DNA from: a virus
Taxonomy: Duplodnaviria; Heunggongvirae; Uroviricota; Caudoviricetes
Virus record (IMG/VR): IMGVR_UViG_2579778956_000004
Span: 1-23,861 of that record
Length of the DNA: 23,861 bases
Reading direction: 5' to 3' (one strand)
The notes below the pieces were generated by a model, which had not been told where the DNA came from, made no database searches, and saw nothing but the letters and a program-made list of their open reading frames with translations. Position numbers and translations under genes: made by a program. This document shows, in pieces, positions 3,787 to 22,721 of this stretch; the stretch's first letter is position 1, and each line of letters starts with the position of its first letter.

Positions 3787-3796
3787 TCGAATAGGC

Positions 3797-3823: not shown

Positions 3824-3843
3824 ACTTACTGAAAAATATGATT

Positions 3844-4428: not shown

Positions 4429-4483
4429 TTTCTGGAAAATCGCCTCATATCTGAATCAGAAGATGATTCAATTTAAAGCAATA

Positions 4484-4550: not shown

Positions 4551-4582
4551 TTATTATCTGAAATAAATATCAGGCAATAGCT

Positions 4583-4813: not shown

Positions 4814-4835
4814 TATCCAGCCACAACCCTCTGTA

Positions 4836-4858
4836 GACCGCCATCCGGCGGTCTTTTC
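4836..4858 (+). terminator. Rho-independent terminator after the Cro-like gene (tR1-like position)
   Basis: GACCGCC-ATCC-GGCGGTC stem-loop followed by TTTTCAT, 23 nt downstream of the Cro-like stop. Confidence 0.6.
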
Positions 4859-4868
4859 ATATCTATTC

Positions 4869-4883
4869 GTACCTCAAAGGTAA
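4869..4883. promoter_or_regulatory. Operator-like palindrome upstream of the replication operon
   Basis: GTACCTCAAAGGTAA, one mismatch from TTACC-N5-GGTAA. Lies between the terminator and the ATG at 4963 and is preceded by the 11-mer ATCTATTCGTA (4861-4871). Confidence 0.4.
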
Positions 4884-4962
4884 TAAAAACCAAATATGGT
4901 TGATCTTTTTTTTGTGTCAGCACAAAATAACCGTAATCCCAATACTAATAACAGGGCTTACC

Positions 4963-5163
4963 ATGGAAATCATTACACGTATTGATGCCGCAAAGCGCGG
5001 ACTTAAACGCTACTACACCGGAAAAACATGTAAGCACGGACATGACAGTGAACGCTGGGTTTACAACGGACACTGTGTTGAGTGCACCATGGAATCAAAC
5101 CGTCGTATCAGGGCAGAGATTAAGCAGATCATGATTAATTCCTCCCCACAACATTCAAGCTGA
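4963..5163 (+). CDS. Small Cys/His-rich protein (66 aa), possible zinc-ribbon regulator
   Basis: Start chosen at the internal ATG at 4963 (MEIITRIDAAKRGLKRYYTGKTCKHGHDSERWVYNGHCVECT...), preceded by AGGG. The upstream extension in the ORF track would run through the promoter region. Cys-x-His-Gly-His ... His-Cys-x-x-Cys spacing suggests metal binding. Confidence 0.45.
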   Translation: MEIITRIDAAKRGLKRYYTGKTCKHGHDSERWVYNGHCVECTMESNRRIRAEIKQIMINSSPQHSS

Positions 5164-5178
5164 TAGCGGAGATTAATC

Positions 5179-5994
5179 ATGAGCAGACATGCAACAGATT
5201 GGGCCTGGGAGACAGATCCAGGTAGCTCGTCATTAAAGCTCATACTGCTCTCGATGGCTGACAGAGCCGATGAATATAACCTCTGCTACCCCAGCATAGA
5301 ACGCCTCGTTAAAGACACTTGCCTGAATAAAAAAACCGTGCAGGCCGGACTTATATCGCTCATGAAAATGGGGCTTATTTCAGATACCGGGGAGAGAAAG
5401 GGAGCGACAAAAAGAGTGCGGGTTTTCTCTCTTAATATAACCAAAAACGGGAACATTAAAGGCAACCGAGAGGGGGGCAATGAACCCGAAAACGGTAATG
5501 TTACCGAAAACGGGAATATACCCAAAAACGGGATGTTGAATGATCCCAAAAACGGGATGTTGAATGATCCCAAAAACGGGATCCAGAACCAGTCATATAA
5601 CCAGTCATTTAACCAAGAGAGGGAGAGCAGGACAAAAAACGGGGATTCTGTGCATCATGACCCCGGCGCAAACAACGCCGTGATGAATAACTTTGTTCCT
5701 CCTGGTGGGTCAGGGCAATTAGGCAAATTTGTCATGCATGAACAATGGCAGCCATCAGATGACTTTCTTCGGAAAAGCTCATTGCAGGGGATCTACCTGG
5801 ACAGTCTGCCAACGGCACAGGAACTTGCAGAGTTCAGAATTTACTGGATGGCTGAGGGTAAGGCATACCATCAGGCACAGTGGGAGCAGAAGCTGGCAAG
5901 GCGGCTGCAGATTAGCAGACAGAAGCAATCAACATTACCTGATAACAACGTTCCGCACTGGAACAGCCCTGAAGCATGGGAGGATTTCTTGTGA
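5179..5994 (+). CDS. Replication initiator, lambda-O-like (N-terminal HTH, repeat-encoded linker, C-terminal domain)
   Basis: SD GGAG before the ATG at 5179. N-terminal LKLILLSMADRADEYNLCYPSIERLVKDTCLNKKTVQAGLISLMKMGLI is HTH-like. The central region is encoded by the iteron repeats. The stop overlaps the next gene start (GTGA at 5991-5994). Confidence 0.7.
   Translation: MSRHATDWAWETDPGSSSLKLILLSMADRADEYNLCYPSIERLVKDTCLNKKTVQAGLISLMKMGLISDTGERKGATKRVRVFSLNITKNGNIKGNREGGNEPENGNVTENGNIPKNGMLNDPKNGMLNDPKNGIQNQSYNQSFNQERESRTKNGDSVHHDPGANNAVMNNFVPPGGSGQLGKFVMHEQWQPSDDFLRKSSLQGIYLDSLPTAQELAEFRIYWMAEGKAYHQAQWEQKLARRLQISRQKQSTLPDNNVPHWNSPEAWEDFL
5441..5645 (+). repeat. Iteron-like direct repeats inside the initiator gene (candidate origin of replication)
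   Basis: Seven copies of an AAAACGG(G/T)A core at about 5443, 5489, 5506, 5524, 5548, 5572 and 5634, including two perfect tandem 24-bp units CCCAAAAACGGGATGTTGAATGAT (5521-5544, 5545-5568). Followed by AACCAGTCAT x2 (5587-5608) in an AT-richer stretch. Confidence 0.6.
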
Positions 5995-8510: not shown

Positions 8511-8974
8511 TGATCGATGTTCGAATTATTCCCGCTACCGAAGAGCATCTTCAGATGATTTTGCCGGATGTTCGTCAGGCTGATATTGACGAACTGTATG
8601 CGGTATCACTGATGACTACCGAAGATGCGCTGCGTGTTGGTCTGCGTACTGCGACTATGGCCTGGTCAGGATTTGCGAACGGAGAACTGGTAACCATGTT
8701 TGGCGTATCTCCGGCGTCAATGATCGGTGGCAATGGTACGCCCTGGCTGGTCGGAACCAGCCGTATTGAAAAATATCAGAAGACATTTCTTCGCCACTGC
8801 CGCCCTGTATTGCAGCAGATGCTGGCAGTTTATCCGCGCCTGGAAAACTATGTCGACGAGCGAAACCATGTTGCCAAAGCATGGCTGCACTGGCTTGGAT
8901 TCAGGCTTGAAGAAGCCGCGCCTTATGGTGCACTTGGTCTTAATTTCCACAGATTTCACATGGAGAGCAAATAA
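8510..8974 (+). CDS. Small virion-associated protein, T7 gp13-like by position and size (hypothetical)
   Basis: 154-aa ORF whose ATG overlaps the upstream stop (TGATG). Position and size match the gp13 slot of a T7-like gp12-gp17 series. No motif recognised. Confidence 0.45.
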   Translation: MIDVRIIPATEEHLQMILPDVRQADIDELYAVSLMTTEDALRVGLRTATMAWSGFANGELVTMFGVSPASMIGGNGTPWLVGTSRIEKYQKTFLRHCRPVLQQMLAVYPRLENYVDERNHVAKAWLHWLGFRLEEAAPYGALGLNFHRFHMESK

Positions 8975-9549
8975 TGTGCGATCCGGTTATTGCTGGTGGC
9001 GCAATGCTCGCCATGAGTGGCATTCAGGCATACACCCAGTACCAACAGGGAAAGTATGCCTCGAAGGTTGCAGAAGCGAACGCAGATATAGCCACAGCTC
9101 AGGCAAATGATGCAATAAACAGAGGTAACGCTGAAGCTGAGCAACGGCGCAGAGAGACCCGACAGCGGCTTGGTACACAGGCAGCGACAATGGGGGCTAC
9201 CGGCGCTGATTTATCTACAGGTAACGCGCTGGATATATTTGGTGACACTGCTCAGTTTGGCGCTCTTGATTCGCTAACGACGGTGAATAACGCGCAACGC
9301 GAGGCTTACGGTTATCAGGTTCAGGCTGCCAACTATAAAGCAGAAGCCAGTTCAGCCCGTAAACAGGGGAATGTGGGAGCAGCAACAACTTTACTCACTG
9401 CGCCTCTGAAGGCATACGGTGCGTACCAGATGTTTGGTGGGACGTGGAGTCCGTTCTCTAAAGGAAGTACATCTAGTGGTGGGACGCCAATGTTATCTAA
9501 CTCAGGTTTTATGAATTCTGACTCCCGATTCAAAATAGGAGGTTACTGA
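8974..9549 (+). CDS. Internal virion protein, T7 gp14-like
   Basis: 191 aa, begins MCDPVIAGGAMLAMSGIQAYTQYQQGKYASKVAEANADIATAQ. Ala/Gln-rich with an N-terminal Met-Cys, similar in size and composition to T7 gp14 as recalled. Start overlaps upstream stop (TAATG); SD GGAGAG. Confidence 0.5.
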   Translation: MCDPVIAGGAMLAMSGIQAYTQYQQGKYASKVAEANADIATAQANDAINRGNAEAEQRRRETRQRLGTQAATMGATGADLSTGNALDIFGDTAQFGALDSLTTVNNAQREAYGYQVQAANYKAEASSARKQGNVGAATTLLTAPLKAYGAYQMFGGTWSPFSKGSTSSGGTPMLSNSGFMNSDSRFKIGGY

Positions 9550-12062
9550 TGCCTGTTGTTCCTACTACATCCGGACGCCAGGTTGAGAGCCGTGGAGTTC
9601 AGTCAGCAGGCTTGCAGACGTTTTCTCAGCCAGGTATTGGTGATGCTTTTGTTCGGGCAGGGACAGAGGCAATTGATGTTTTGGGGCAGGCAAAACAGCG
9701 TGCCAATATCGCTCTGGCTCAGGAGGCATCTCTTAACCTCAGTCAGATAAGCAGTGATCTGCTGAATAACCCTGAAACAGGTTTGCTTAACCTGAAAGGG
9801 AAAAATGCTATTGGAAAAGGCCATGAGTATACGCAGCAGTTTGATGCTCAGGTCGAACAACTGGCTATGTCGCTGCCGGATGAACAGGCTCGTAATGCTT
9901 TCATGCAGCAGGCGCAGCAGCAGCGCATTCAGTTCACTACGCAGGCCGGGCGGCACGAGATAGGGCAAATTAATGCCTACGAAGAAGGTCAGTTTCAGGC
10001 GACGCTGCTGAACAATGGTAAAAATGCCGCAGCATTGTATGGCGACAATGCCGCATACGTATTGGCTAATAAGCAAACTTTCCAGCAAATTGAGGAGTAC
10101 GGTGCTGCACATGGCTGGAGCGACGAGCAAATACAGGCCAAGAAAATCGAGTTTAAAGAGAAGGTTGCTGATGCAGCATTGTCCCAGTGGTCGGCAAACA
10201 ATGCGACCGCATTCATCCAAAGTAATGGCGAGTTAAGTGATACTGCTGCTGGAGCTCGCCGTGCTGTAACAGATAGTGGCTCTTCCGAGCGTGTCCGTGG
10301 CATACGCAACAATAACCCCGGAAATCTCGAATATAGCAAAACTAATCCGTGGGTAGGCCAGACCGGTGATGATGGTAGATTTGCTAAATTCGAAACACCT
10401 GAACACGGGATTCGTGCATTAGGGCGGAACCTGATGTCGTATCAGCGGCAGGGTATTGATACCGTCAGCGAGATAATTAATCGCTGGGCACCGCCTACTG
10501 ATAAAAATGACACTATGTCGTATATCAAAGCAGTGTGCGAACAACTTGGCGTTTCTGCTGATGAGCCTCTCGATGCATCAAATCCTGATACCCTGAAGGC
10601 GCTTTGTGCAGCCATTATCCATCATGAGAACGGTAGCCAGCCATACAGTGATCAGCAGTTAACTGCTGGTGTCAGTGCAGCACTTGGTTTATCAACAATT
10701 CCAACCAACACCAAACGCTATACCGGTAATGCAGCATTCGATGCGGCATCTCCTGAGGCTCAGGCAAGTTTTATGCGGCAGGCGGATCAACTGCGTCGGC
10801 AGCAGCAGGCTGAATATAAAACGATGATTGACAGCCAGGTTCGCGATGCGACGGCTGCGTATATGCGTGGCGTTGAATTTCCTAACCCACCTGGTGAGGC
10901 TGATTTTATTGCAGCTTATGGAGTCAGAGAAGGAAACCTGCGATATACCGAGTTTAAGAATACGCAGATCGCCGGACAGTATATAGGCTCTTTCCGCAAC
11001 ATGCCGACAAGCAGCATTACAGCATATGTTGAGCAATTACGCCCGGATACTGGTGAAACAGGGGAGGGGTATGCGGCACGCGCAGCTCTTTATGACAACG
11101 TTGTTTCGGCTGCAAATCAGGTGATAAAGCAGCGGCAGTCGGATCCTGTGCAGTTCTCTCTTGCCTCCGGACAGACAAAGCCTATCGACATGAGCAATAA
11201 GGATAACTTTGGACAGAGCGTTGCCTTGCGTGCCGCTCAGGTCAGTGACCTTGCTAAGTCATATGGCACTCCACTGACGTTCTTTTCCAAAGACGAGGCC
11301 AATCAGATCGGTGTTTTCTTTCGTGATGCTCCAGTTTCCCAACAGGCAGCATATCTCGATACCATCAGGCAGAGCACTGGTGGTGGGCAGGTGTATATGT
11401 CAGCACTACAGCAGATCAGTGCCAACGCTCCATCTGCTGCCGTTGCCGGGATACTGATGGATAAGCCAGGTGGTATTTTGGCAGAAAAAAACTGGTTTAA
11501 TCCGGATGTTTCCGTGTCTCCTGAAACCGCTGCGCAGACAATTCTTGCTGGCGCGGCGGCTCGTAAAGGTACTGATGACGCGAAAGGTATTCCGATGCCT
11601 AAAGATGCTGATCTCCGCCTTGAGTTTTCTGACATGGTGAAGGATGCATTTGCTGGTGATGCTCAGGGGGCATCAATGGCATACGAGATCGCAAAGGACT
11701 ATTACGCTGGTGTGATGGCGAAAAAAGGCGTGGTATCAGGCGAAATTGACAATGATATCTGGAAACAGGCTGTTAACGTAGCTACAGGTGGCGTGCATGA
11801 CTATAACGGAATGGGGAATGTTCTTTTGCCGTGGGGAATGTCTGCAGAGCAATTCGATAAGCAGGTTAATCAGGCTTGGAATGAACAAGTTGTTGGCACA
11901 GGGATAAAAACACCGCCTGGTCAGTATGGTTTGCAAAGTTACGGCGATAGTCAGTACCTGGTGAAACTTGGTACTGGTTATCTGCTAAAAGATGATGGTT
12001 CTCCCGTTGTTCTTGATCTGACACAGAAGCGTCAGAGATTCTCCGGAGATATTCCGCAATGA
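9549..12062 (+). CDS. Large internal virion / ejection protein (T7 gp15/gp16-like) with a possible cell-wall-hydrolase-like segment
   Basis: 837 aa; SD AGGAGG; start overlaps upstream stop (TGATG). Residues ~250-350 contain RGIRNNNPGNLEYSKTNPWVGQTGDDGRFAKFETPEHGIRALGRNLMSY, which looks like a conserved enzymatic module, but I cannot assign the family without a search. Confidence 0.6.
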   Translation: MPVVPTTSGRQVESRGVQSAGLQTFSQPGIGDAFVRAGTEAIDVLGQAKQRANIALAQEASLNLSQISSDLLNNPETGLLNLKGKNAIGKGHEYTQQFDAQVEQLAMSLPDEQARNAFMQQAQQQRIQFTTQAGRHEIGQINAYEEGQFQATLLNNGKNAAALYGDNAAYVLANKQTFQQIEEYGAAHGWSDEQIQAKKIEFKEKVADAALSQWSANNATAFIQSNGELSDTAAGARRAVTDSGSSERVRGIRNNNPGNLEYSKTNPWVGQTGDDGRFAKFETPEHGIRALGRNLMSYQRQGIDTVSEIINRWAPPTDKNDTMSYIKAVCEQLGVSADEPLDASNPDTLKALCAAIIHHENGSQPYSDQQLTAGVSAALGLSTIPTNTKRYTGNAAFDAASPEAQASFMRQADQLRRQQQAEYKTMIDSQVRDATAAYMRGVEFPNPPGEADFIAAYGVREGNLRYTEFKNTQIAGQYIGSFRNMPTSSITAYVEQLRPDTGETGEGYAARAALYDNVVSAANQVIKQRQSDPVQFSLASGQTKPIDMSNKDNFGQSVALRAAQVSDLAKSYGTPLTFFSKDEANQIGVFFRDAPVSQQAAYLDTIRQSTGGGQVYMSALQQISANAPSAAVAGILMDKPGGILAEKNWFNPDVSVSPETAAQTILAGAAARKGTDDAKGIPMPKDADLRLEFSDMVKDAFAGDAQGASMAYEIAKDYYAGVMAKKGVVSGEIDNDIWKQAVNVATGGVHDYNGMGNVLLPWGMSAEQFDKQVNQAWNEQVVGTGIKTPPGQYGLQSYGDSQYLVKLGTGYLLKDDGSPVVLDLTQKRQRFSGDIPQ

Positions 12063-13861
12063 GTTACTTTGGCCTTAATCCAGTAAACCAGAATCAGCAG
12101 CTTGACGAAGCAGCATCAAATCCAGCTGGCTTTAACAGCGATGTTGGTTTTTTCGACAATGCTGTAGGAGCGGCATTGTCTGGTTTGTACTCCGGGCTGG
12201 TGGCAAAGCCAGATCAGTTGCTCTGGGCAGGGATGGATAAAATCGTATCCCCGATTGCTCAGTTTGTTAACGAAAACACCTCGCTCAATGACACTTCAGT
12301 TTCATACGTTGCCGAGCAGAGAAAACTAGCAGAGCAGCAGGTTAAGCGGCTGACGCCTGATGCCGCGACAACCGGAACCGCCGGGCAGGTTCTTTATGGG
12401 TTGTTCGATATGGGCGGGCAGGCTGTTGTCGGTACAACGCTCGGTGGTCCTGTCGGAGGTGCAGCGGCGGTAACTTCGCTACAGGGTTTTTCTGAGTTTG
12501 AACGGCTGACAGCACAGGGTGTTGATTTCAGGACGGCGCAGGAAGCGGGATTAGTGCAGGGCATTACTGCTGGTGCCGGAACACTGATCCCTATGAGCCT
12601 CGGGTTACGTGCTGGTGGTGCGCTGGCGGAAGGTGTGGCGGCTCAGCTTGCGCGGACGGGTGAGAGTTCAGTGCGACGCGCCGCAGCAACAGCAGTACGT
12701 GCAACGCCAGATATTGCCTATGCCGCAGGTACAAATATTGCGTTCGGTATGGCACAGCGTGGGCTTACTGCAAAAACACTTCGTGATGGTGGCTATAGCG
12801 AAATGGCTAACCAGTATGATGTGTTGGATCGACAGGCAATTGCTATTGATGCTGTTCTTGGGGTGGCGTTTGGTGGTGTCGGCAGATTTATTAACTCTCG
12901 CGGCGAGTCTACAAACGCACCAAATTTTTCACCAGTTGATATCGATGCTGCACTGGCGGCGAATGCCGCTCATCATGCTGAAATTGATATTGCGCCCGGC
13001 GTGCCGATCAACGTGCTTTCGCGCAATTCTCACATTCAGGCTCTGCGAAAAGCTATGTCTGATGTTAGCCAGGGGAGACCTGTAGACGTTGCCAGCATTG
13101 TTGAGTCTGCATCTTTCAGTGAAATTCCTGGGCGCAAGAGTCTGCTGTCTCAGGCAGTTAATGAGGCTCTGTCATCTGTAGATGATGGAGTAACGGCGCG
13201 CGCTATAGAAAATCGGTTGCTTGAAGAACAGGCCGCGCAGCTTTTGCCGCGTGGAGATAGACAGGTTTACCAGTCTGAAATCGCTAATAGCCAACGAATT
13301 ATTGAAAATCTCACTGAACAGCGTGCACAAATTCTTGCAGAAGAGCCAACCGGTAGCGGTAAAGCTTTGTCTCGTGCTCGATCAGATAAACAGGCCAGAC
13401 TTCGCGATATTGATCAACGAATCCGGCAGGCACAAGAACGCCTGGAATTTTCCCGTAACGCGTTGGCACCGCACGAGCCTGGCGGTCAGTTTTTTGAAGC
13501 TCGAGCAGAACTGGCTCGGAGACAGCAGGCAGAAAGTGAACTTAATGCTCAGGCTGTTTCATTCTATAAAACAGCAGAGGTCAGGACGCCAGACGAAGTA
13601 GCTCCTTTTGAGCCTGATAAAATATTGCAACAGGCAGAACAAAAAATGATGTCAGATCCGGCAGGAGATATTGATCTGCGCATAGCTGAAGACTCGCTGC
13701 TTGAATCACCTGACATGATAATCACCGTGCTGGATGATGATGGTAATCCACAATCGCGCAGTGCGCGTGAAGTACTGGATGAAGCGAACAGGGAAAGTGA
13801 GCAGGCAATACAGGATTCCAGCCTGTTTGATGTTGCTGTGGCGTGTTTCTTGAGAGGTTAA
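12059..13861 (+). CDS. Large internal virion / ejection protein (Gly/Ala-rich)
   Basis: 600 aa; start overlaps upstream stop (ATGA). The N-terminal half is Gly/Ala-rich and hydrophobic (GTTLGGPVGGAAAVTSLQG...), the C-terminal half charged and coiled-coil-like. Consistent with a core/ejection protein. Confidence 0.55.
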   Translation: MSYFGLNPVNQNQQLDEAASNPAGFNSDVGFFDNAVGAALSGLYSGLVAKPDQLLWAGMDKIVSPIAQFVNENTSLNDTSVSYVAEQRKLAEQQVKRLTPDAATTGTAGQVLYGLFDMGGQAVVGTTLGGPVGGAAAVTSLQGFSEFERLTAQGVDFRTAQEAGLVQGITAGAGTLIPMSLGLRAGGALAEGVAAQLARTGESSVRRAAATAVRATPDIAYAAGTNIAFGMAQRGLTAKTLRDGGYSEMANQYDVLDRQAIAIDAVLGVAFGGVGRFINSRGESTNAPNFSPVDIDAALAANAAHHAEIDIAPGVPINVLSRNSHIQALRKAMSDVSQGRPVDVASIVESASFSEIPGRKSLLSQAVNEALSSVDDGVTARAIENRLLEEQAAQLLPRGDRQVYQSEIANSQRIIENLTEQRAQILAEEPTGSGKALSRARSDKQARLRDIDQRIRQAQERLEFSRNALAPHEPGGQFFEARAELARRQQAESELNAQAVSFYKTAEVRTPDEVAPFEPDKILQQAEQKMMSDPAGDIDLRIAEDSLLESPDMIITVLDDDGNPQSRSAREVLDEANRESEQAIQDSSLFDVAVACFLRG

Positions 13862-13866
13862 ATTAA

Positions 13867-16341
13867 ATGAGACAGGAATGTATACAAGCGGTCCAGCAGG
13901 CGGCGCAGCGCACGTTAACGGAGCGAGAAATACAGAACATTGAAGACCGCATTTATCGAAATATGCGCTCCATTGCTCGTGATGACCCGATGTCGTGGAG
14001 ACAACTTTCCGAATCAGAGCGGCTATATCGAGCAGCACAATTGGCATCTGAAGAATTACAGCGAGAAGCGGCATTAAAGAAACGTCGTGTGGCCCTCACT
14101 ATAGCCGCACGTCAGAGATTGGATAAATTTATCAATAGCTATCAAGGGGCTGATGGGAAACTTGGCGCTCTTAACCGTACTATTGCTTTTAATGCAGACG
14201 GTAAATCGAATTTCCTCTCTGTTGAGTCCAGAACAAAAGCCACTCGTGATTATGCATTGAGTCAATTGCAGGAGGCATTTGAAGCAGTTGATCCTCGCTT
14301 TTTTGGCCTGTTTGAAGATGAAGCTGGCGTACGTGACCTGGTATATGAAATGCGAGGGCAAAATACTGGCAATGCTAAAGCAAGAAAAGGTGCTAAGGCG
14401 TGGAGAGAAGTGACAGATCTACTGCGCCGCCGGTTTAATGATGCTGGTGGGGACATTGGCTATCTCGAAAACTGGGGGATCCCTCAACATCATTCTATGG
14501 AAAAGGTTGGGGCGGTATCAAAGGATAAGTGGGTTAGCGATGTTATAGGTAAGCTGGATCGCAAATATTATATCCGAGCCGATGGACAACTGATGAACGA
14601 TGCCGAGTTGTCTGCATTTCTTGGAGAGGCTTATAACACGATCGCTACAGGTGGGCTGAATAAGCTTACTGATACCGGAATGCGAATTTCCGGCGCACGT
14701 GCTAACCGTGGTAATGCATCACGACAGATACATTTCAAAGATGCAGATTCCTATCTGCAATATCAGCAACTTTATGGCGATCGCTCTCTATGGGAAATCA
14801 TGGTCGGTCACCTTGAAGGTATCAGTAAAGATATTGCACTGGTGGAAACATATGGCCCAAACCCCGATCATGTTTTCCGCTCTCTTCTTGATCAGGTGAA
14901 GGCAGAAACGGCAACAGCTAACCCGAGTAAAACCGGTAAAGTCGAGCGGCTGGCGAACAACACAGAGAATCTGTACAACTTTATTTCCGGAAAGACACAG
15001 CCTGTAGCGAATCCGCACATCGCGCGATGGTCTGACAATATCCGCAACTGGTTGGTTGCCAGCAGACTCGGATCCGCGTTGCTGTCATCGTTCTCTGACC
15101 TTGGAACCATGTATCTGTCTGCGAAGGTTACCAACCTTCCAATGAACCAGTTATTCCGCAACCAGCTTGAAGCTATGGACCCAACGAACCGTACAGAACT
15201 TGCGCGGGCGCGCCGCGCTGGTCTGGCGATGGAATCTCTACTTGGCAGCGTTAACCGCTGGGCGATGGATAATATGGGGCCGTCTGTGTCTCGTTGGGCT
15301 GCAACGGCGGTAATGCGTGCCAGTGGGCTTACAGCATGGTCAGATGCGCACAAGCGCGCCTATGGCGTAACCATGATGGGAAGCCTGGGAGAAGTAGTGT
15401 CACGGACACCAGACCTTCGTAGCCTCGATGATTCTGATTTTCGTATCCTGAAAAGCAAAGGGATTACTGACACAGACTGGAGCGTATGGAAGCTGGCGCA
15501 ACAGGAGGACTGGGGGAACGGCAATAATACGATGCTGACACCGGAAAGCATTATGCGTATCCCTGATTCAGCAGTTAAACATCTTGGTGAGCCTGAACGC
15601 GTGAAATTTGAGGCAACGCGCAAACTGCTCGGTGCCGTAACTGAAGAAGTTGATATGGCTGTTATTACACCGGGAGCACGTGAGCAACTGATAACCGGTT
15701 CTGGTATTCAGCGTGGAACATGGAAAGGTGAATTAACGAGAAGTGTTTTCCTGTTTAAATCGTTCCCTATCTCGGTGGTTATGCGTCACTGGTCACGCGC
15801 TATGGGTATGCCGTCTGCTGGTGGGCGTGCGGCATATATTGCGACGTTTATTGCCAGTACGACCATTCTTGGCGCTTTGTCGCAGCAACTTAACGACCTT
15901 GCGTCTGGTCGTAATCCTCGCGAGATGACAGGAGAAGATGCTGCTAAATTTTGGCTTGGTGCTCTACTGAAAGGTGGTGGTCTTGGCCTTTACGGTGACT
16001 TTTTATTGTCAGATCACACTAGGTACGGAAGCGGCGCGCTGGCGTCGATGCTTGGCCCGGTAGCTGGTCTGGTTGATGACGTAGTGAAGATTGCTCAGGG
16101 CATACCGTTAAATGCTGTGGAAGGGAAGAGTGAGCAGACTGGTGGTGATCTGGTTAAGCTTGGGAAGGGGCTGATGCCAGGTGCAAATCTCTGGTACTTG
16201 AAGGCGGCTCTCGATCACATGATTTTTAACCAGATGCAGGAGTATTTTTCACCAGGCTATTTGCGTAAAATGGAGCAACGTTCGAAGAAAGAGTTTAACC
16301 AGACATACTGGTGGCGACCTCAGGATGTCACTCCGCAATAA
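13867..16341 (+). CDS. Large internal virion / ejection protein
   Basis: 824 aa; SD GAGAGG precedes the ATG at 13867. Last gene of the tightly coupled structural series. No specific motif recognised. Confidence 0.55.
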   Translation: MRQECIQAVQQAAQRTLTEREIQNIEDRIYRNMRSIARDDPMSWRQLSESERLYRAAQLASEELQREAALKKRRVALTIAARQRLDKFINSYQGADGKLGALNRTIAFNADGKSNFLSVESRTKATRDYALSQLQEAFEAVDPRFFGLFEDEAGVRDLVYEMRGQNTGNAKARKGAKAWREVTDLLRRRFNDAGGDIGYLENWGIPQHHSMEKVGAVSKDKWVSDVIGKLDRKYYIRADGQLMNDAELSAFLGEAYNTIATGGLNKLTDTGMRISGARANRGNASRQIHFKDADSYLQYQQLYGDRSLWEIMVGHLEGISKDIALVETYGPNPDHVFRSLLDQVKAETATANPSKTGKVERLANNTENLYNFISGKTQPVANPHIARWSDNIRNWLVASRLGSALLSSFSDLGTMYLSAKVTNLPMNQLFRNQLEAMDPTNRTELARARRAGLAMESLLGSVNRWAMDNMGPSVSRWAATAVMRASGLTAWSDAHKRAYGVTMMGSLGEVVSRTPDLRSLDDSDFRILKSKGITDTDWSVWKLAQQEDWGNGNNTMLTPESIMRIPDSAVKHLGEPERVKFEATRKLLGAVTEEVDMAVITPGAREQLITGSGIQRGTWKGELTRSVFLFKSFPISVVMRHWSRAMGMPSAGGRAAYIATFIASTTILGALSQQLNDLASGRNPREMTGEDAAKFWLGALLKGGGLGLYGDFLLSDHTRYGSGALASMLGPVAGLVDDVVKIAQGIPLNAVEGKSEQTGGDLVKLGKGLMPGANLWYLKAALDHMIFNQMQEYFSPGYLRKMEQRSKKEFNQTYWWRPQDVTPQ

Positions 16342-16350
16342 GGAAGTGTT

Positions 16351-16524
16351 GTGTTTTTAATTATTTTGAGTGTGATAATTTCTGTTGGGTTGTTATTTAT
16401 TGACCGCTACAAATATTTTCTTAACCCTCAGACTCAAGCTATTTGCTGGTTCATCTTTGTTGTGCAGGGAGTAGTTCTTGTTGCAAGCCTTATTGAGGGG
16501 AGGCCTCTTATTTTTACTGGGTAA
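16351..16524 (+). CDS. Small hydrophobic protein (57 aa), putative membrane protein
   Basis: Not in the ORF track. GTG 16351 with AGGAAG 4 nt upstream. Product VFLIILSVIISVGLLFIDRYKYFLNPQTQAICWFIFVVQGVVLVASLIEGRPLIFTG has two predicted hydrophobic helices. Confidence 0.3.
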   Translation: MFLIILSVIISVGLLFIDRYKYFLNPQTQAICWFIFVVQGVVLVASLIEGRPLIFTG

Positions 16525-16536
16525 ATAGGTGACTAC

Positions 16537-16833
16537 ATGCAAGCTATAGGATTCATTGTTTATATCGTCGTTGGTCTTTTTCAGTTGGCAGCAATTATGG
16601 CTGGGCTTGAATCATGGTGGGGATTGCACTGGATAATTGCAGCCCCCATTGCTTTCATCGTGAGCTATATTCCATTTGTTGGAGCGATTGTTGGTATGGT
16701 TGGCGCTGTGGATGTATGGCGGTGGGAGTGGTGGCAGGCTGGCCTTCTCTTCTTTGGTGGGATCATCTTTGCTATTGTCTGCGGTGGAATGTCATCATTT
16801 TTCGAATGGCTATCATTCAGAAAAGGGACGTGA
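16537..16833 (+). CDS. Small integral membrane protein (98 aa)
   Basis: Three hydrophobic segments (IGFIVYIVVGLFQLAAIMAGL; WIIAAPIAFIVSYIPFVGAIVGMVGAV; GLLFFGGIIFAIVCGG) with Trp-rich loops. Followed by a terminator. Confidence 0.5.
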   Translation: MQAIGFIVYIVVGLFQLAAIMAGLESWWGLHWIIAAPIAFIVSYIPFVGAIVGMVGAVDVWRWEWWQAGLLFFGGIIFAIVCGGMSSFFEWLSFRKGT

Positions 16834-16842
16834 CATGTCACA

Positions 16843-16866
16843 GGCCGCTTTCGCGGCCTTTTCTTT
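16843..16866 (+). terminator. Rho-independent terminator after the small membrane genes
   Basis: GGCCGC-TTTC-GCGGCC stem-loop followed by TTTTCTTT. It overlaps the stop codon of the convergent minus-strand gene. Confidence 0.5.
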
Positions 16867-17122
16867 ATGTGGTTTGTTTTCGTAATTGTTCGGCACAATA
16901 GTCTAGATGTGTTTGCAGATCCTGCATAGACATCTGTGAGCTGGTGACGTAGTTAATCAGTGCAGTCAGTTCGGCAAGTGGGCCATCGACATTAAATCCA
17001 TCTTTATCGAGATCCCGGAGTAATTTCATCAAGTGCGATCCATCCACCAGTGACCTGACGCCTCCCGGCGTGTGAATCCTTTCGGTAAATCCGTCTTCCA
17101 GTGGATAGTGATACTGCTGCAT
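16865..17122 (-). CDS. Small SOS-regulated protein (85 aa), candidate antirepressor
   Basis: Start assigned to ATG at 17122 (MQQYHYPLEDGFTERIHTPGGVRSLVDGSHLMKLLRDLDKDGF...) with GGAG 8 nt upstream. The longer 126-aa ORF in the track would read through the LexA box and operator. A near-consensus LexA box sits about 20 nt upstream of this ATG. Confidence 0.55.
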   Translation of the reverse strand: MQQYHYPLEDGFTERIHTPGGVRSLVDGSHLMKLLRDLDKDGFNVDGPLAELTALINYVTSSQMSMQDLQTHLDYCAEQLRKQTT

Positions 17123-17141
17123 CTTATCTTCTCCATGCAAT

Positions 17142-17161
17142 AACTGTATATTTATACAGTA
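17142..17161. promoter_or_regulatory. LexA (SOS) box
   Basis: AACTGTATATTTATACAGTA matches the E. coli LexA consensus TACTGTATATATATACAGTA at 18 of 20 positions, with the CTGT-N8-ACAG core perfect. On the minus strand a TATAAA -10-like hexamer lies inside the box. Confidence 0.75.
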
Positions 17162-17198
17162 GCAAATAATTTGTTTGCTATCCAGCACGTTTTGCAAA

Positions 17199-17213
17199 TT
17201 ACCTGAAAGGTAA
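17199..17213. promoter_or_regulatory. Operator-like palindrome TTACC-N5-GGTAA between the SOS gene and the tailspike gene
   Basis: TTACCTGAAAGGTAA, a perfect inverted repeat of the same type as at the immunity region, followed by the shared 11-mer ATCTATTCGTA (17215-17225). Confidence 0.45.
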
Positions 17214-17317
17214 TATCTATTCGTATTTACAGTCTTTCTATCCATATGTGGTTTTGCAGGTAATAGAATAACCAGATATGCGGCGCAACGGGTGCTGCGA
17301 CTATCTGGAGATTTAAC

Positions 17318-19480
17318 ATGACGGTCTCAACCGAAGTTGACCACAACGAATACACAGGTAACGGCGTTACGACATCGTTTCCGTATACTTTTCGAATTTT
17401 CAGAAAATCAGACCTGGTTGTTCAGGTGTCTGACCTGAACGGGAACATCACAGAGCTGATTCTTGATACTGATTATACAGTTACGGGTGCTGGTGGGTAT
17501 TCTGGTGGCAATGTAATACTGATGTCGGCACTTGCAAACGGATACCAAATTTCCATTTCGCGTGAGTTGCCGGTGACGCAGGAAACCGATCTCCGTAATC
17601 AGGGTAAGTTCTTCGCAGAAGTGCATGAGGATGCTTTTGATAAACTGACTATGCTGATTCAGCAGGTACGCAGCTGGTTAAGTCTGGCCCTCAGAAAGCC
17701 TTCGTTCGTGGCTAACTATTATGATGCTCTTAATAACTACATCAGAAACCTGCGAGATCCTTCACGCCCGCAGGATGCGGCAACTAAAAATTATGTTGAT
17801 AGCGTTGCAGATACAAACCTCAACAAAACACTAAGAACACCGGAAGCTATTCAATCTCTTCCTGATGCGATTTCCAGGGCAAACAAAATTGTTGCTTTTG
17901 ATAGCGCTGGTCAGCCATTTGCAACACTACCCCCATCAGGTAGCGCCACCGATGTGTTAATTGAGCTGGCAAAGCCTACTGGAGCGGGATTATCAGGGTT
18001 CGATAAGTCAGTTGATTACGCCGGTGGTACGGTTGGTAGTGAGCTAAAAAATGTTATATTCGTCAATCCTGATATGTATTCAACATTGCAGGAGGCGATT
18101 GATTATGCAGCATCTTTAACAGGGCTGGAACATTCTCCAAGTAGTGCAGCTGGGCATCCAGACTGGATACAACCAAATACTGTATGCAAAGTTGTCAGAT
18201 TAAATGGAAAGAAATACCCCATAAACACAACATTACATGTTTACGGTGATGTAAGCATAGATGCAGAATTTGGAGGGGTATATCTCACGGATGACTTCAT
18301 AGCAGATTCTTCTGGGTATGCTGTTAAATGCGATAAAGGAACAGGTAATCAATACGCTGGGCACATTAGCAATCTTTTAATTGACGCCCGCGCAAAGACT
18401 GTTAATGGATTTAAAATATCTGATGGTTATGCCAACAAGTTAGATGGCATTTACGTAGCCAACGTTGATGGTCATGGCATTCATATTGCTGGAGGCATGG
18501 GTGTGCACCTCATGAAATTCTATGCTATCAGCGTATTAAAACCTACGAATCCACTTAGTCAGGCACACATCATAGAAGGAAGCGATCACCATATTAGTAT
18601 GGGTGAAGGCAGATATTTCAGATTCGGAACGTGGGTTAGGAATGGTGGAAATAACAGGCTTAATAACGTACATAACTGGGGAATGTATGACGATACAGTG
18701 GCCGACCAAAACTCAAGAATGAAATGTTGCTTTGTTGTACAAAATTCTATAAACAACTCATTTAATCAATGTTTTGCAGATTCACCATCAAAATGGGATT
18801 ACACAAAAACAAATTTAGCTCCTGTTGATGGTTATATTAATGGTGGGATTGGTTTCTTCGTTGATAGTGGCGCTACCGGGAATATATTCTCTCAGTGTCA
18901 AACGTTCGTTAACATGAATGCTTATAATTCTGCCGGTCTCTCAAGTTATACTGCGGCGTTATATCCATTTCTTGTAGGTAGTGCGAATTGTGGATTTTCT
19001 TTATGTGAAAACTCAAACAGCCCAGCATGGGTTGGTAAATGTATAAATCATGTTTCTGGGGTGGCTCAAGAGTTCACAAATGCTGTGGGGACAAAAAATT
19101 TCGTTGGCATAGAAGACGACATGCATGCTAACAGGACTTTTTTCAGAAAAGGAGTTGGTGTTCCAATTATCTCGTATGTTATTAAAACAGAAACAGCAGG
19201 AAGCACTTATGTTGCTGATTTTTCATTGTCTTCTTATATTTCAATAACATGCAACTCTAACATTAGTATATCCGTTGCGACACTCAGTAACCCGCCAATA
19301 GGATATACTGAATGTACACTTTCAGTGTTTTCCGCATCATCAAAACTGATCACCTTTACAGGATCTGTTACGCTTGCGAAAAATACACCATCACTAAATG
19401 AATCCGGAACTCAGGTGTTCCGGATGTCAACTGCTGATGGCGGGGCTACTTGGTATGCGAGACTTGTAGCGAACTATTAA
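17318..19480 (+). CDS. Tailspike / tail fiber with T7-gp17-like N-terminal anchor domain and a distinct C-terminal receptor-binding region
   Basis: 720 aa; SD GGAG. N-terminus EYTGNGVTTSFPYTFRIFRKSDLVVQVSDLNGNITELILDTDYTV follows the conserved pattern of the T7 gp17 N-terminal domain shared by podovirus tailspikes. The C-terminal two-thirds are visibly more AT-rich and Asn/Gly/Ser-rich, consistent with a beta-helical receptor-binding domain. Confidence 0.8.
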   Translation: MTVSTEVDHNEYTGNGVTTSFPYTFRIFRKSDLVVQVSDLNGNITELILDTDYTVTGAGGYSGGNVILMSALANGYQISISRELPVTQETDLRNQGKFFAEVHEDAFDKLTMLIQQVRSWLSLALRKPSFVANYYDALNNYIRNLRDPSRPQDAATKNYVDSVADTNLNKTLRTPEAIQSLPDAISRANKIVAFDSAGQPFATLPPSGSATDVLIELAKPTGAGLSGFDKSVDYAGGTVGSELKNVIFVNPDMYSTLQEAIDYAASLTGLEHSPSSAAGHPDWIQPNTVCKVVRLNGKKYPINTTLHVYGDVSIDAEFGGVYLTDDFIADSSGYAVKCDKGTGNQYAGHISNLLIDARAKTVNGFKISDGYANKLDGIYVANVDGHGIHIAGGMGVHLMKFYAISVLKPTNPLSQAHIIEGSDHHISMGEGRYFRFGTWVRNGGNNRLNNVHNWGMYDDTVADQNSRMKCCFVVQNSINNSFNQCFADSPSKWDYTKTNLAPVDGYINGGIGFFVDSGATGNIFSQCQTFVNMNAYNSAGLSSYTAALYPFLVGSANCGFSLCENSNSPAWVGKCINHVSGVAQEFTNAVGTKNFVGIEDDMHANRTFFRKGVGVPIISYVIKTETAGSTYVADFSLSSYISITCNSNISISVATLSNPPIGYTECTLSVFSASSKLITFTGSVTLAKNTPSLNESGTQVFRMSTADGGATWYARLVANY

Positions 19481-20594
19481 CTTTTGAGTTGAATCTCAAC
19501 TCAATGTTTTTATAGGTTATTAGTGATATTATCACAGTAATCATAAATGTAATTATTGACATAATGAAGTAGGAAAGGATTCCTATTTCATATAGGTTAA
19601 ACCCAATTATTTTAAATACGTATAAAGATAGATATATAATAGCTTGGTGGCTAAGGTATATGCTATAGCTAATCATACCAATCAATACTATGTTGCTGGA
19701 TTGAAGAAACTTAGGCTTAATGTAGCAAATGCTGGAGAATAATATTGTTACTAAAATAAATCTATAAATCCCGTATCCGTCATCTTTTTGATAAATGCAG
19801 GTGAGCAATGTTAATATTGCTGTAATTGATATAATCAACTTCCAAGATTTTTTATCATGGTTTAGTGAATTATCGTAAACAACTTTACCAACCGCACCAC
19901 TAATGAAAAATAAAAACATATCTGTATTTAAATTAGACTTTTCTATAGTATAAATACCAATAATAAACAGTGTTATGGAAATATATTTTTCATTTTTATA
20001 AAAAAGAGATATAGCTACAATTGATATATAGAAAATCCATTCATACGGCAGAGTCCATGATACCACGCCAATACTGTGTATCCATGAGTCTTTGAAGAAA
20101 ATTCCACCGCCAAGAAACCCAAACGCTAATAGCTGAATAAGTGCTTTTCTGTAATCATCAAGACTAGCTCCATCAGACATAAATATTATAAACACTGCCA
20201 TGTTTATCAATGCAAAAAATAAAAACGCAGGTGCTAGTCGTTTTATTCTCTTCATCATAAAATCATCCGCGCTTTTTACATTTTTTATTCTTGATAAAAA
20301 AAGGAACCCGGTAATTGCGAAAAATATCTCCACCCCTAATGAGCCAAAATTATCATATATCGGCATTATTTTATATGGAATGTTTTGGTTTGTTATCCCT
20401 ATCGTAGGTAAGTAGTAAGCAAAATGATTGAAAAAAACCATAATACATGCCACACCCCTAAGACCTTCAAGCCACAAAATATTGTTTTGTGAATTGTTTA
20501 CTATCCCTGATTTCACAGGAATAAGAAATACAAAAAAAATAAAAATTAAGAATGCAATAAGCTGATATACGCTAAAATCATAGAAAAAACTCAT
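19446..20594 (-). CDS. Acyltransferase-3 family membrane protein, O-antigen acetyltransferase-like (lysogenic conversion candidate)
   Basis: 382-aa polytopic membrane protein with LWLEGLRGVACIMVFFNHFAY near the N-terminus, typical of Oac/OafA-type acyltransferases. Strongly AT-rich relative to flanks. SD AGGA precedes the ATG at 20594. The 3' end overlaps the tailspike 3' end by 35 nt. Confidence 0.8.
   Translation of the reverse strand: MSFFYDFSVYQLIAFLIFIFFVFLIPVKSGIVNNSQNNILWLEGLRGVACIMVFFNHFAYYLPTIGITNQNIPYKIMPIYDNFGSLGVEIFFAITGFLFLSRIKNVKSADDFMMKRIKRLAPAFLFFALINMAVFIIFMSDGASLDDYRKALIQLLAFGFLGGGIFFKDSWIHSIGVVSWTLPYEWIFYISIVAISLFYKNEKYISITLFIIGIYTIEKSNLNTDMFLFFISGAVGKVVYDNSLNHDKKSWKLIISITAILTLLTCIYQKDDGYGIYRFILVTILFSSICYIKPKFLQSSNIVLIGMISYSIYLSHQAIIYLSLYVFKIIGFNLYEIGILSYFIMSIITFMITVIISLITYKNIELRFNSKVNSSLQVSHTK
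19484..19511 (+). terminator. Putative rho-independent terminator after the tailspike gene
   Basis: TTGAGTTGA-ATC-TCAACTCAA hairpin (9-bp stem) followed by TGTTTTT, starting 4 nt after the tailspike stop. It lies inside the 3' end of the convergent acyltransferase ORF. Confidence 0.45.
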
Positions 20595-20772
20595 TACTCA
20601 ATCCTGTTTTATACGTAATTTATTTCATTTTAAATGCTAAACCATCCACAGTCACTCAGTTCTATGCCGCGTTTGTGTTTTTTGTGGCTAGACATCAGGT
20701 AATTTACTCCATATATGGTTTATTGTGTATGATGAACTCACCAACTAAGGGGGTTTTTATGCACAGTAAACG

Positions 20773-21186
20773 GTGGTCACTATGTCAGCCCAGCTAACCA
20801 GTGAGTCTTTAAATCAGTGGCTTAGTATGGGTTCTCTGGCTGCGGTAATCGCAGGTGTCCCTCCCGAGGTGGCTCTTGGTGCTTTATCCGGGGCGGTAAT
20901 ATTTATTACCTCTGCCGTTGAGTATCCAATACGCCGCCGGGTTCTCCTGTCGATGCTCAGCTTTCTCTGTGGGCTTCTCTTCTACAAACCAACTGCATCA
21001 ATTCTTATCGGCGTAGCCAGCCTGATCCCAACTATCACGCAGGATTCATTCGAGAAAGGGATCGTCTTCTCTGCTGGCGCGTTCGTGTCGGCAATCGTCG
21101 CAGTACGTATTGGTATCTGGCTCTATCACCGTTCGGACAATCCACGCGATTTAATCCCGGGGAGAAAAGACGATGACAACTCATGA
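20773..21186 (+). CDS. Putative holin
   Basis: 137-aa product with hydrophobic segments (LAAVIAGVPPEVALGALSGAVIFITSAV; ILIGVASLIPTI; IVFSAGAFVSAIVAVRIGIWLY) and a charged C-terminus, placed first in the lysis cassette. GTG 20773 and ATG 20782 are alternative starts. Confidence 0.5.
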   Translation: MVTMSAQLTSESLNQWLSMGSLAAVIAGVPPEVALGALSGAVIFITSAVEYPIRRRVLLSMLSFLCGLLFYKPTASILIGVASLIPTITQDSFEKGIVFSAGAFVSAIVAVRIGIWLYHRSDNPRDLIPGRKDDDNS

Positions 21187-21481
21187 GCTGCTTTTATTGA
21201 TAGCCAATGCGGTTATCTGTTCTGCGATAGCAATCCGCGTCGGAACCTTCCGGAGAAATGGATCGCAACACCGAAGGTTGGGAGGCTGGCTTGCTTATTT
21301 CCTGATTGTTGCTGCAGCTAGTATTCCTGTTCGTGTCGTCTATGCAATCTGGTTACGTACGCCAATGGCTGTGGATTTATCTGAGGTCATTATCAATGCT
21401 GTCATGCTTGCCGCGGTTATTAAAACACGCGGTAACGTTGTTCAGATTTTCAAAATATCGAGGTCTAAACATGGAGATTAA
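21173..21481 (+). CDS. Second small membrane protein of the lysis cassette (holin/antiholin-like)
   Basis: 102 aa with three hydrophobic segments and a basic C-terminus. Overlaps the previous gene by 14 nt and the endolysin start by 11 nt. Confidence 0.5.
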
Positions 21482-22100
21482 ACAATTCCAGCGAGCTGCT
21501 GGTATTAGCGAGGCGCTGGCCGCACGCTGGTTCTCGCATATAACTTCTGCGATGAAAGAGTTTGGTATCAGCAAACCAGAAGATCTGGCAATGTTTATTG
21601 CTCAGGTCGGGCATGAGTCTGGAGGCTTCACCCGGTTGCAGGAAAATTTCAACTACAGCGTCAGCGGACTGGCTAATTTCGTTCGGGCTGGGCGTCTCAC
21701 TCAGGGACAGGCCAACGCATTGGGGCGTCGTGCTGGTGAACCACCATTGCCACTTGAGCGCCAGAGAGCGATCGCCAATCTGGTGTACAGCAAACGCATG
21801 GGTAACAATGCCCCAGGCGATGGATGGAATTACCGTGGGCGCGGACTTATCCAGATTACCGGTTTGAATAACTATCGTGACTGCGGAAACGGCCTGAAAG
21901 TGGACCTGCTGGAGAGTCCTGAACTGCTGGCGCAGGACGAATACGCGGCTCGTAGCGCGGCGTGGTTTTTTGCCAGCAAAGGCTGCATGAAGTATACCGG
22001 CGATATTGCACGTGTAACTCTGATTATCAATGGTGGCCGGAACGGCATTGATGACCGGCGCGCGCGATACATCACTGCCAGTAAGGTGCTGGCGGTATGA
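21471..22100 (+). CDS. Endolysin, glycoside hydrolase family 19 (chitinase-like)
   Basis: Start taken at ATG 21471 ([11 protein letters not shown]...); the upstream extension in the ORF track overlaps the holin-like gene. Contains [10 protein letters not shown] and [16 protein letters not shown], characteristic of GH19-type phage endolysins. Confidence 0.85.
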
Positions 22101-22594
22101 TCTGGGCATTCGTAAAAGCATACTGGAAACAGTTGCTTATCGTGGCGGTGCTTGCTGTTCTGGTCATATCAGGAGTTGTTGCCTGGAATGTACACGGTAG
22201 CCGTCAGTACGACGCCGGGTATGCGCAGGCACAGGAAGATCAGAAGCAGGCTGATGATAAGGCCAGGTCACAACGTGATCAGGAGAAAACACAAATTGAA
22301 CGTGAAGCACAATCCCGTATCGATGTGGCGCGTGTTGATGCTGAGCATGCTAATGCCGCTGCTGACAGCCTGCGCGCCGAGCTTGACAAAACCAAGCGAC
22401 TCGCCGAACACTATACCGGATCTTTCCCCACTGGCACGCCAGCCAGCAAGGTCATCGGTGTGCTCGCCGACATGCTTGAAGAAAGCAATCGAGTTTACAA
22501 CGCAACAGCAGCTGAGGCTGAAAAGTATCGGATTGCAGGAGAATCCTGCGAACAGCAATACGATTCACTGAGGAAGCAAAAATCGTGGCACTGA
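22097..22594 (+). CDS. Inner-membrane spanin (Rz-like)
   Basis: ATG overlaps the endolysin stop (ATGA). N-terminal transmembrane helix [18 protein letters not shown] followed by a charged coiled-coil-like periplasmic domain. Confidence 0.7.
22323..22571 (+). CDS. Outer-membrane lipoprotein spanin (Rz1-like), embedded in the Rz-like gene in another frame
   Basis: [41 protein letters not shown]... has a signal peptide with an LLTAC lipobox and a Pro-rich mature part, nested wholly within 22097-22594. Start is uncertain (ATG at 22323, 22338, 22347 or 22353). Confidence 0.5.
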   Translation: MWRVLMLSMLMPLLTACAPSLTKPSDSPNTIPDLSPLARQPARSSVCSPTCLKKAIEFTTQQQLRLKSIGLQENPANSNTIH

Positions 22595-22721
22595 TTTCCG
22601 GTGACGGTATATAAAACGGTACGGTGAAAATCAGGTTGCAGAAAGTTGTTATCAGTCAATTGGTTATGGTATCCGTAAATAATTGAGTGGGAATGATTTT
22701 AATCCCTGCACTATGAATGAA

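Follow-up and report, generated by a model that had tools for sequence, protein, structure and literature searches.

The LexA-Ant-Rep switch of epsilon15-like phages is already known from a description published in 2013 and a structure published in 2016. In Salmonella phage SPC32H, the repressor Rep is said to stay uncleaved in the SOS response and to be inactivated by the antirepressor Ant. The ant promoter of SPC32H reportedly overlaps the LexA site, and a point mutation at this site in SPC32N reportedly leads to constitutive Ant. Tetrameric Ant is said to bind two Rep dimers and to free both from DNA, and to be structurally distinct from the Tum/Gifsy-type antirepressors. The pathway has been summarised as self-cleavage of LexA, followed by synthesis of Ant and inhibition of the repressor via protein-protein contact (PMC7380047, citing Kim and Ryu 2013, J Virol 87:11775). 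On DNA, Rep forms a tetramer, which is broken in a complex of an Ant tetramer with two Rep dimers (PMC9638917, citing Kim et al. 2016, PNAS 113:E2480). A 2025 preprint compares the conformational trapping by another antirepressor to that by SPC32H Ant.

Tum of phage 186 and the antirepressors of Gifsy-1, Gifsy-3 and Fels-2 follow the same logic, in which a LexA-repressed antirepressor binds and inactivates a non-cleavable repressor, although the phages concerned are of other types (myo- and siphoviruses). Gifsy antirepressors are active on non-cognate repressors (PMC7380047; PMC3121763).

The DNA analysed here, a stretch of 23,861 nucleotides referred to as the window, is a prophage of E. coli of the epsilon15/phiV10 type (Uetakevirus). 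The following features of the window are related to the switch:

3844 to 4428, minus strand: rep, encoding the 194-aa prophage repressor (two HTH regions, S24 domain absent), the presumed target of Ant.
16842 to 16859, plus strand: G+C-rich hairpin between a convergent membrane ORF and ant, found by a terminator scan.
16865 to 17122, minus strand: ant, 85 aa, by homology and synteny the ortholog of SPC32H Ant, epsilon15 gp19 and phiV10 p24.
17131 to 17134, minus strand: GGAG, the Shine-Dalgarno sequence of ant, 8 nt ahead of its ATG, read from the sequence.
17142 to 17161, no strand assigned: LexA (SOS) box, with 18 of 20 consensus matches and a perfect CTGT-N8-ACAG core.
17151 to 17156, minus strand: TATAAA, a -10-like hexamer within the LexA box, putative -10 element of the ant promoter, read from the sequence.

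The 85-aa ORF is very probably Ant, a small antirepressor that LexA represses in temperate podophages of the epsilon15/phiV10 type (Uetakevirus). A phmmer search of the protein against PDB returned a single match, 5D50_E 'Anti-repressor protein' (86 aa, E=3.3e-47), in which residues 2-85 of the window Ant align with 3-86 of the crystallised protein, and the source phage of 5D50 is SPC32H. The identity to SPC32H Ant is 87% (86.9% by tblastn; 85 vs 86 aa), and it amounts to 83-96% for epsilon15 gp19 and phiV10 p24, 98.8% for the small Ant of ZX5, and 99% for PAS61 Ant. The original prediction stated that the protein matched no antirepressor family and may be a new one; this part does not hold, as the protein belongs to the SPC32H Ant family. 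Besides 5D50_E, the searches gave phrog_450 (E=3.7e-47), which PHROGs labels 'unknown function'. The search with Pfam and NCBIfam matched no curated family. The sole Pfam match, DUF724, was considered noise (E=0.0044; 17 bits vs a cutoff of 38 bits). Ant thus looks like an orphan because Pfam and NCBIfam offer no model for it and its PHROG is of 'unknown function'. In the SPC32H record KC911856 the orthologous gene is labelled 'ant: anti-repressor protein', and ant and rep occupy syntenic positions, whereas the epsilon15 and phiV10 records name the ant ortholog 'hypothetical' and leave the LexA box unannotated.

The ATG of ant is located at 17122 on the minus strand. An extended ORF of 126 aa (16865-17245), which is annotated in PAS61, was rejected, since the extension contains in-frame stops in five of the eight relatives (phiV10, epsilon15, Tyrion, BUCT554 and BUCT711). 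Therefore, the 85/86-aa form is the true gene. The apparent conservation of the extension reflects the regulatory sites that would lie there.

Gene order was compared with SPC32H, epsilon15, phiV10, PAS61, Tyrion, BUCT554 and BUCT711. As in SPC32H, ant of the window follows the genes for the internal/ejection proteins and precedes the tailspike gene, from which it is divergent. On the P22 map, immI (ant, arc, mnt) is flanked by gene 16 and tailspike gene 9, so that an antirepressor gene occupies the same slot between ejection genes and tailspike. The original prediction had pointed to this slot, and as an analogy of map position the comparison stands; homology to P22 Ant was not found by Pfam, which detected no P22 antirepressor domain in the window Ant. 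P22 Ant is also large, unrelated and controlled by Mnt, Arc and sar RNA without LexA, and membership of the P22 type was ruled out. Homology to Tum, GfoA or GfhA did not appear among the Pfam, PHROGs, NCBIfam and PDB matches either (Pfam, PHROGs and PDB at E≤1). Ant would work like the Tum/Gifsy-type antirepressors, with no sequence relationship to them detected, and it is not a member of their group.

The near-consensus LexA box upstream of the 85-aa minus-strand ORF was found as originally predicted, together with a good Shine-Dalgarno sequence (the GGAG 8 nt before the ATG, invariant in the alignment of eight genomes) and the TATAAA hexamer inside the box, as seen on the strand of ant. With the sequence AACTGTATATTTATACAGTA, the box departs from the consensus TACTGTATATATATACAGTA at positions 1 and 11, outside the CTGT and ACAG arms; on the ant strand it reads TACTGTATAAATATACAGTT, and 19 nt separate it from the ant ATG. 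It is the only LexA 20-mer with up to three mismatches in the 23.9-kb window, and no such site occurred in 100 dinucleotide shuffles. The bare CTGT-N8-ACAG core alone is not significant (one in the window vs a mean of 0.30, with at least one in 21 of 100 shuffles). A sigma-70 consensus scan flagged no promoter at the LexA box, where the -35 is weak, and none for the tailspike gene. The positions of the ant and tailspike promoters are therefore putative.

Eight genomes were compared at this locus, namely the window, PAS61, phiV10, SPC32H, epsilon15, Tyrion, BUCT554 and BUCT711, whose hosts represent four genera (E. coli, Salmonella, Enterobacter and Klebsiella). All eight carry a LexA-type box upstream of ant, at about 19-20 nt, and its core is perfect in seven; in the Klebsiella phage ATGT replaces CTGT. 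In SPC32H the box and the ATG of ant are spaced as in the window, and the box matches the consensus at 17 of 20 positions, compared to 18 of 20 here. The operator half-sites upstream of the box are invariant in the alignment, as are the box arms apart from the Klebsiella ATGT, while the central spacers vary. Invariant arms with variable spacers are the pattern expected of sites contacted by proteins. Among the 77 IMG/VR contigs with near-identical Ant, the LexA core is kept in 76, variation is limited to the central AT spacer, and the box of the window is the commonest allele. These contigs come from the best 80 matches, all with Ant 96-100% identical, so the scan served as a population check, confined to near-identical Ant loci.

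The GenBank sequences of SPC32H and SPC32N were compared over 1.6 kb (SPC32H 19000-20600). Only two base differences were found, one of which falls in the LexA box and changes, on the ant strand, ...ATACAGTG to ...ATAAAGTG (CAG to AAG). This difference agrees with the point mutation in the LexA box that reportedly results in constitutive Ant. The box of the window retains the wild-type CAG.

The repressor is likewise related to the crystallised pair. Rep matches 5D50_A 'Repressor' in PDB with E=4e-42 over residues 1-190, and its C-terminal half matches 5D4Z_A (E=4e-20), which corresponds to the tetramerisation/HTH domain of Rep 92-198. Its Pfam matches are of HTH type only and fall in two regions (about 21-61 and 106-147), and Peptidase_S24 had no Pfam match even at E≤1. 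This bears out the earlier description of a repressor with two HTH domains and no S24 module. The window Rep is 100% identical to the Rep of phiV10 and to that of PAS61. Its identity to SPC32H Rep is 41% (49% in the first 80 residues, 38% in the last 105). Between the E. coli and Salmonella types, the overall identity amounts to 84-87% for Ant and 41-42% for Rep. Given only 41% identity to SPC32H for Rep, against 87% for Ant, the transfer of the Ant-Rep interaction from SPC32H is an inference. Invariant patches are present in both domains of Rep across all types, including NLVNRW in the N-terminal HTH region, and would fit the shared operator half-site. The homologous two-HTH Rep without S24 and the operator motif TTACC-N5-GGTAA are common to the window and SPC32H. 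The two differ in host (E. coli here, Salmonella for SPC32H), in the phiV10 type of the window Rep, and in that the prophage of the window is a deletion derivative.

Sites with the TTACC-N5-GGTAA motif (up to one mismatch) are enriched in the window, with six found vs 0.5 expected and none of 100 shuffles reaching six. One of these sites lies upstream of ant and the remaining five flank the repressor/cro region. The sites and an additional half-site are as follows (no strand is assigned to the palindromes):

3710 to 3724: Rep operator-type site in the leftward early promoter region, from the motif scan.
3772 to 3786: second Rep operator-type site of the leftward early promoter region, at a distance of 62 bp from that at 3710 to 3724.
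4484 to 4498: Rep operator-type site in the intergenic region of rep and the cro-like gene, from the motif scan.
4532 to 4546: Rep operator-type site with one mismatch in the same intergenic region, from the motif scan.
4869 to 4883: Rep operator-type site with one mismatch downstream of the cro-like gene, from the motif scan.
17198 to 17214: Rep operator-type palindrome ATTACC-N5-GGTAAT between the divergent ant and tailspike genes, from motif enrichment and conservation.
17259 to 17269, plus strand: GGTAAT half-site with an overlapping TAGAAT (candidate -10 of the tailspike gene), from an invariant ATTACC block in the alignment.

The core of the ant-proximal operator (17199-17213) reads TTACCTGAAAGGTAA. 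Its centre is 54.5 bp from the centre of the LexA box, and the 17198-17214 palindrome is separated by 84 nt from the ATG of ant and by 112 nt from that of the tailspike gene. A TTACC-N5-GGTAA palindrome is present about 55 bp upstream of the LexA box in all eight genomes, and the operator is kept in 76 of the 77 IMG/VR contigs with near-identical Ant. In the epsilon15 record AY150271.2, seven sites with this motif are annotated as binding sites of 'repressor'. One of them, the 'protein_bind repressor' at 19895-19911, separates gp19 from the tailspike gene and corresponds to 17198-17214 of the window. A Rep operator near ant had thus been annotated before and is not a new observation. The GGTAAT half-site (17259-17264) is 50 bp from the full operator, a spacing that resembles those of the operator pairs at rep/cro (48 bp) and at the leftward promoter (62 bp), and the TAGAAT is on the tailspike strand; the function of this half-site is putative. 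The original prediction proposed dual control of ant by LexA and the repressor. The operator itself proved to be real and conserved, and dual control is thereby half-shown only. The target promoter is ambiguous because the operator sits between the divergent ant and tailspike genes, and Rep control of ant, of the tailspike promoter, or of both is compatible with the data.

Compared to PAS61, the prophage of the window lacks 13.9 kb (PAS61 8719-22605), which comprises late-early genes, the genes for terminase, portal, protease and capsid, and the first 656 nt of a gp12-type tail gene. The junction, at about 6695-6697 of the window, gives rise to a fusion ORF (5976-8510) that is in frame and has a lambda-P-like N-terminus, and this junction was found in none of the 5,426 complete E. 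coli genomes. A second deletion at about 2948 removed part of the recET region. The deletion looks recent because its flanks are about 98% identical to the intact phages. As the head and packaging genes are absent, the Ant/LexA/Rep switch is intact in an element that is unable to make virions. The att core ATTGAGTGGGAATGATT, present in ZX5, phiV10 and epsilon15, which integrate at the 3' end of guaA (2022 ZX5 paper), is found at 22682 of the window and represents attR.

The original prediction of an SOS-wired antirepressor acting against a non-cleavable repressor is supported by the homology of Ant and Rep to 5D50, by the annotation in KC911856, and by the reviews cited above. Both proteins of the E. 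coli element have counterparts in the crystallised pair, the box and the operator are conserved, the gene order is syntenic, and Rep is devoid of S24. By orthology, LexA would bind the box, ant would be SOS-inducible, and Ant would bind Rep in the E. coli pair. In the undamaged lysogen, host LexA would occupy the box at 17142-17161, which overlaps the putative ant promoter, and Ant would be absent. Upon DNA damage, active RecA would trigger the self-cleavage of LexA, allowing transcription of ant. Ant would then bind the non-cleavable two-HTH Rep (3844-4428), with Ant tetramers probably splitting the DNA-binding Rep tetramers to dimers as in the SPC32H system, and Rep would leave the TTACC-N5-GGTAA operators, so that the lytic promoters would be derepressed. 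In the defective prophage of the window, the switch could derepress the remaining early, tail and lysis genes, whereas virions are excluded. The literature surveyed reports no experiment on the Ant-Rep pair of the E. coli type present in the window.

A more far-reaching proposal is that the ant-proximal operator provides a second, Rep-dependent input to ant and that a single Ant inactivates divergent Reps. The latter is suggested because Ant is 87% and Rep 41% identical to the SPC32H proteins, with one operator half-site in common. We regard this proposal as rather doubtful. If true, the Rep input would result in positive feedback, in which Ant removes Rep and thereby increases ant transcription, and the intact LexA-ant cassette of a defective prophage could act as an SOS-triggered inducer, in trans, of other Uetakevirus prophages or superinfecting phages. 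Neither feedback of Rep on ant nor action of Ant across divergent Reps is described in the literature surveyed.

Related to this, the gene could be LexA-controlled and Ant-like and act, wholly or in part, on a target other than the resident Rep, such as, in trans, the Reps of other Uetakevirus prophages or of superinfecting phages (crosstalk as with the Gifsy prophages), or another conserved partner. The much higher conservation of Ant than of Rep between the E. coli and Salmonella types (84-87% vs 41-42%), the intact cassette in a prophage that cannot make virions, and the action of Gifsy antirepressors on non-cognate repressors (PMC7380047; PMC3121763) would be in agreement with such a target. 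However, Ant and Rep were found together in every genome examined, the crystallised complex (5D50) contains the cognate Rep, and the conserved patches in both Rep domains could form a common surface for Ant binding, which makes a different target improbable. It is very improbable that the cassette is an inert leftover, decaying without biological consequence in a deletion derivative. The 13.9-kb deletion, the second deletion in the recET region and the junction missing from the 5,426 complete E. coli genomes would be expected of such a remnant; nevertheless, Ant shares 99% identity with its counterpart in PAS61, an intact phage, the LexA box is the commonest allele (77 contigs), Rep is 100% identical to that of phiV10, and with flanks about 98% identical the deletion looks recent. 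An inert cassette would bear on the consequence of the switch, not on the identity of the gene.

Prophages also have small LexA-controlled genes from other families. The absence of a Pfam or NCBIfam model match for Ant could point to another SOS-induced small protein (such as a DinI-like RecA modulator or a toxin), and the Rep-type operator upstream of ant to a LexA box that is a chance AT-rich palindrome, with control by Rep only; both are exceedingly improbable. A protein of another kind is effectively refuted by the match to the crystallised antirepressor in 5D50 (E=3e-47), and no DinI or toxin family matched in Pfam at E≤1, which together with the 5D50 match rules out a DinI-like identity. 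The arms of the LexA box, invariant across four host genera in the eight-genome alignment, argue against a chance box. The assignment of the 85-aa ORF as Ant, the SOS-dependent antirepressor of the resident Rep, is thus preferred here.

As a discovery this result adds little, since the window Ant is an ortholog within a published, structurally solved and widespread system. Its practical value is in annotation, as Pfam and NCBIfam lack a model of the family. The ant gene is present in 529 of 5,426 complete E. coli genomes (about 10%), and the protein matches 532 E. coli records; among the matches listed, 14 out of 15 are named 'hypothetical protein' and one is unannotated. The small Ant and its LexA box may also explain the SOS-inducibility of phiV10-type prophages, which carry O-antigen-modifying genes.

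Some Uetakeviruses possess, next to ant, genes for Bro-N-type antirepressors (phrog_1760), such as Tyrion gp20, phiV10 p23 and ZX5 ORF4, whose C-terminal domain is homologous to the whole Ant; the window has no such neighbour. Residues 153-230 of Tyrion gp20 are 40% identical to Ant (E=5e-20), and positions 178-225 of phrog_1760 match it with E=5.8e-7. The Bro-N domain (PF02498) had no Pfam match in the 85-aa Ant, and membership of the Bro-N family was rejected, only the C-terminal module being common. ZX5, which is mitomycin-C inducible and has a repressor identical in sequence to that of phiV10, is the subject of the closest study in E. coli, in which the neighbouring Bro-N protein was tested as 'the anti-repressor' and LexA and SPC32H are not mentioned (2022 ZX5 paper). 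In phiV10 and Tyrion, a Rep-type operator without a LexA box is present between ant and the Bro-N gene. At the other end of ant in the window, the hairpin at 16842-16859 is followed by a T-run on the plus strand only.

The Rep operator motif TTACC-N5-GGTAA is common to all Uetakevirus genomes examined, which comprise the window, PAS61, phiV10, SPC32H, epsilon15, Tyrion, BUCT554, and BUCT711. In the window, the motif was found at six positions:

3710: TTACC-N5-GGTAA operator motif
3772: TTACC-N5-GGTAA operator motif
4484: TTACC-N5-GGTAA operator motif
4532: TTACC-N5-GGTAA operator motif
4869: TTACC-N5-GGTAA operator motif
17199: TTACC-N5-GGTAA operator motif

In the intact phages, further copies lie close to the small-terminase gene and to attP/int, upstream of both the portal region and the holin-region genes, and beyond the replication genes; they often come in pairs spaced 48-62 bp apart. 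Since one operator motif recurs across Uetakevirus genomes at many loci, Rep, the two-HTH repressor, appears to act throughout the genome through a single type of operator. Despite the common motif, Rep of the phiV10-like group is only about 41-47% identical to that of the SPC32H/epsilon15/BUCT711 group.

Judged by identity in these same genomes, the small antirepressor Ant is much more conserved than Rep, on which it presumably acts. When the E. coli types are compared with the Salmonella types, identity is 84-87% for Ant and 41-42% for Rep. The higher conservation of Ant could result from a conserved binding surface, constraints of Ant tetramerisation, or cross-reactivity.

Some relatives encode a Bro-N protein directly downstream of ant, a gene which the window lacks. 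Two examples are:

20417-21121 of Tyrion: gp20, Bro-N protein
19646-20230 of phiV10: p23, Bro-N protein

Ant is homologous over its full length to the C-terminal domain of the Bro-N protein (residues 153-230 of Tyrion gp20, 40% identity, E=5e-20), and phiV10 p23 keeps just the first ~31 residues of this domain. The interval separating ant from the Bro-N gene holds an operator of the Rep type instead of a LexA box (Tyrion 21393, phiV10 20497).

The annotation of ant in public records is problematic. The gene is labelled as 'hypothetical protein' in fourteen out of the fifteen RefSeq E. coli records listed, and is unannotated in the remaining one. The PAS61 record carries an over-extended 126-aa form (32710-33090), and in the record of E. 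coli phage ZX5 (MW722083) the small Ant is labelled 'hypothetical'. The ZX5 paper (2022) took the Bro-N protein ORF4 as the antirepressor.

Window 16345-16833, between the gene of the 824-aa internal protein and ant, does not align to phiV10 or PAS61, which possess a 47-aa membrane ORF at the corresponding place. The segment is also present in YDC107_2, HEMP4, phiv142-3, and Phi05_2388. Its product is a 98-aa predicted membrane protein belonging to phrog_3075 ('unknown function'), with a weak, sub-threshold Pfam match to a holin family. The segment is a moron-like swap adjoining ant.

Within the tailspike gene (window 17318-20594 region), alignment to PAS61 and phiV10 is confined to the first ~160 codons, at 87-89% DNA identity. 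The remainder is unrelated to both phages, as is the following gene:

19446-20594, minus strand: 382-aa Acyl_transf_3 gene, convergent with the tailspike gene and overlapping it by 35 nt at its 3' end

Together, the tailspike remainder and the Acyl_transf_3 gene fit a putative serotype-specific receptor-binding and O-antigen-modification cassette.

Comparison with related phages indicates that the prophage is a deletion derivative. The window lacks 13.9 kb of PAS61 (8719-22605), including late-early genes, terminase, portal, protease, capsid, a gp11-type gene, and the start of a gp12-type gene. The junction, at ~6695-6697 with a 3-nt overlap, creates an in-frame fusion ORF (5976-8510), in which a lambda-P-like replication protein (PF06992, residues 45-205) is joined to the C-terminal ~600 aa of a gp12-type tail protein. 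None of the 5,426 complete E. coli genomes searched contained this junction; both halves were present, at separate places, in 532 of them. A second, smaller deletion at ~2948-2949 (relative to phiV10, 29875 to 31191, and to PAS61, 3713 to 4968) removed part of the recET/recT recombination region.

At the right end, attR is marked at 22682-22698 by the att core ATTGAGTGGGAATGATT, which the ZX5 paper reported as the attP/attB core, located at the guaA 3' end. Beyond it, up to 23861, two minus-strand ORFs encoding a DUF5384 protein and a glycine-zipper lipoprotein-like protein are probably host genes.
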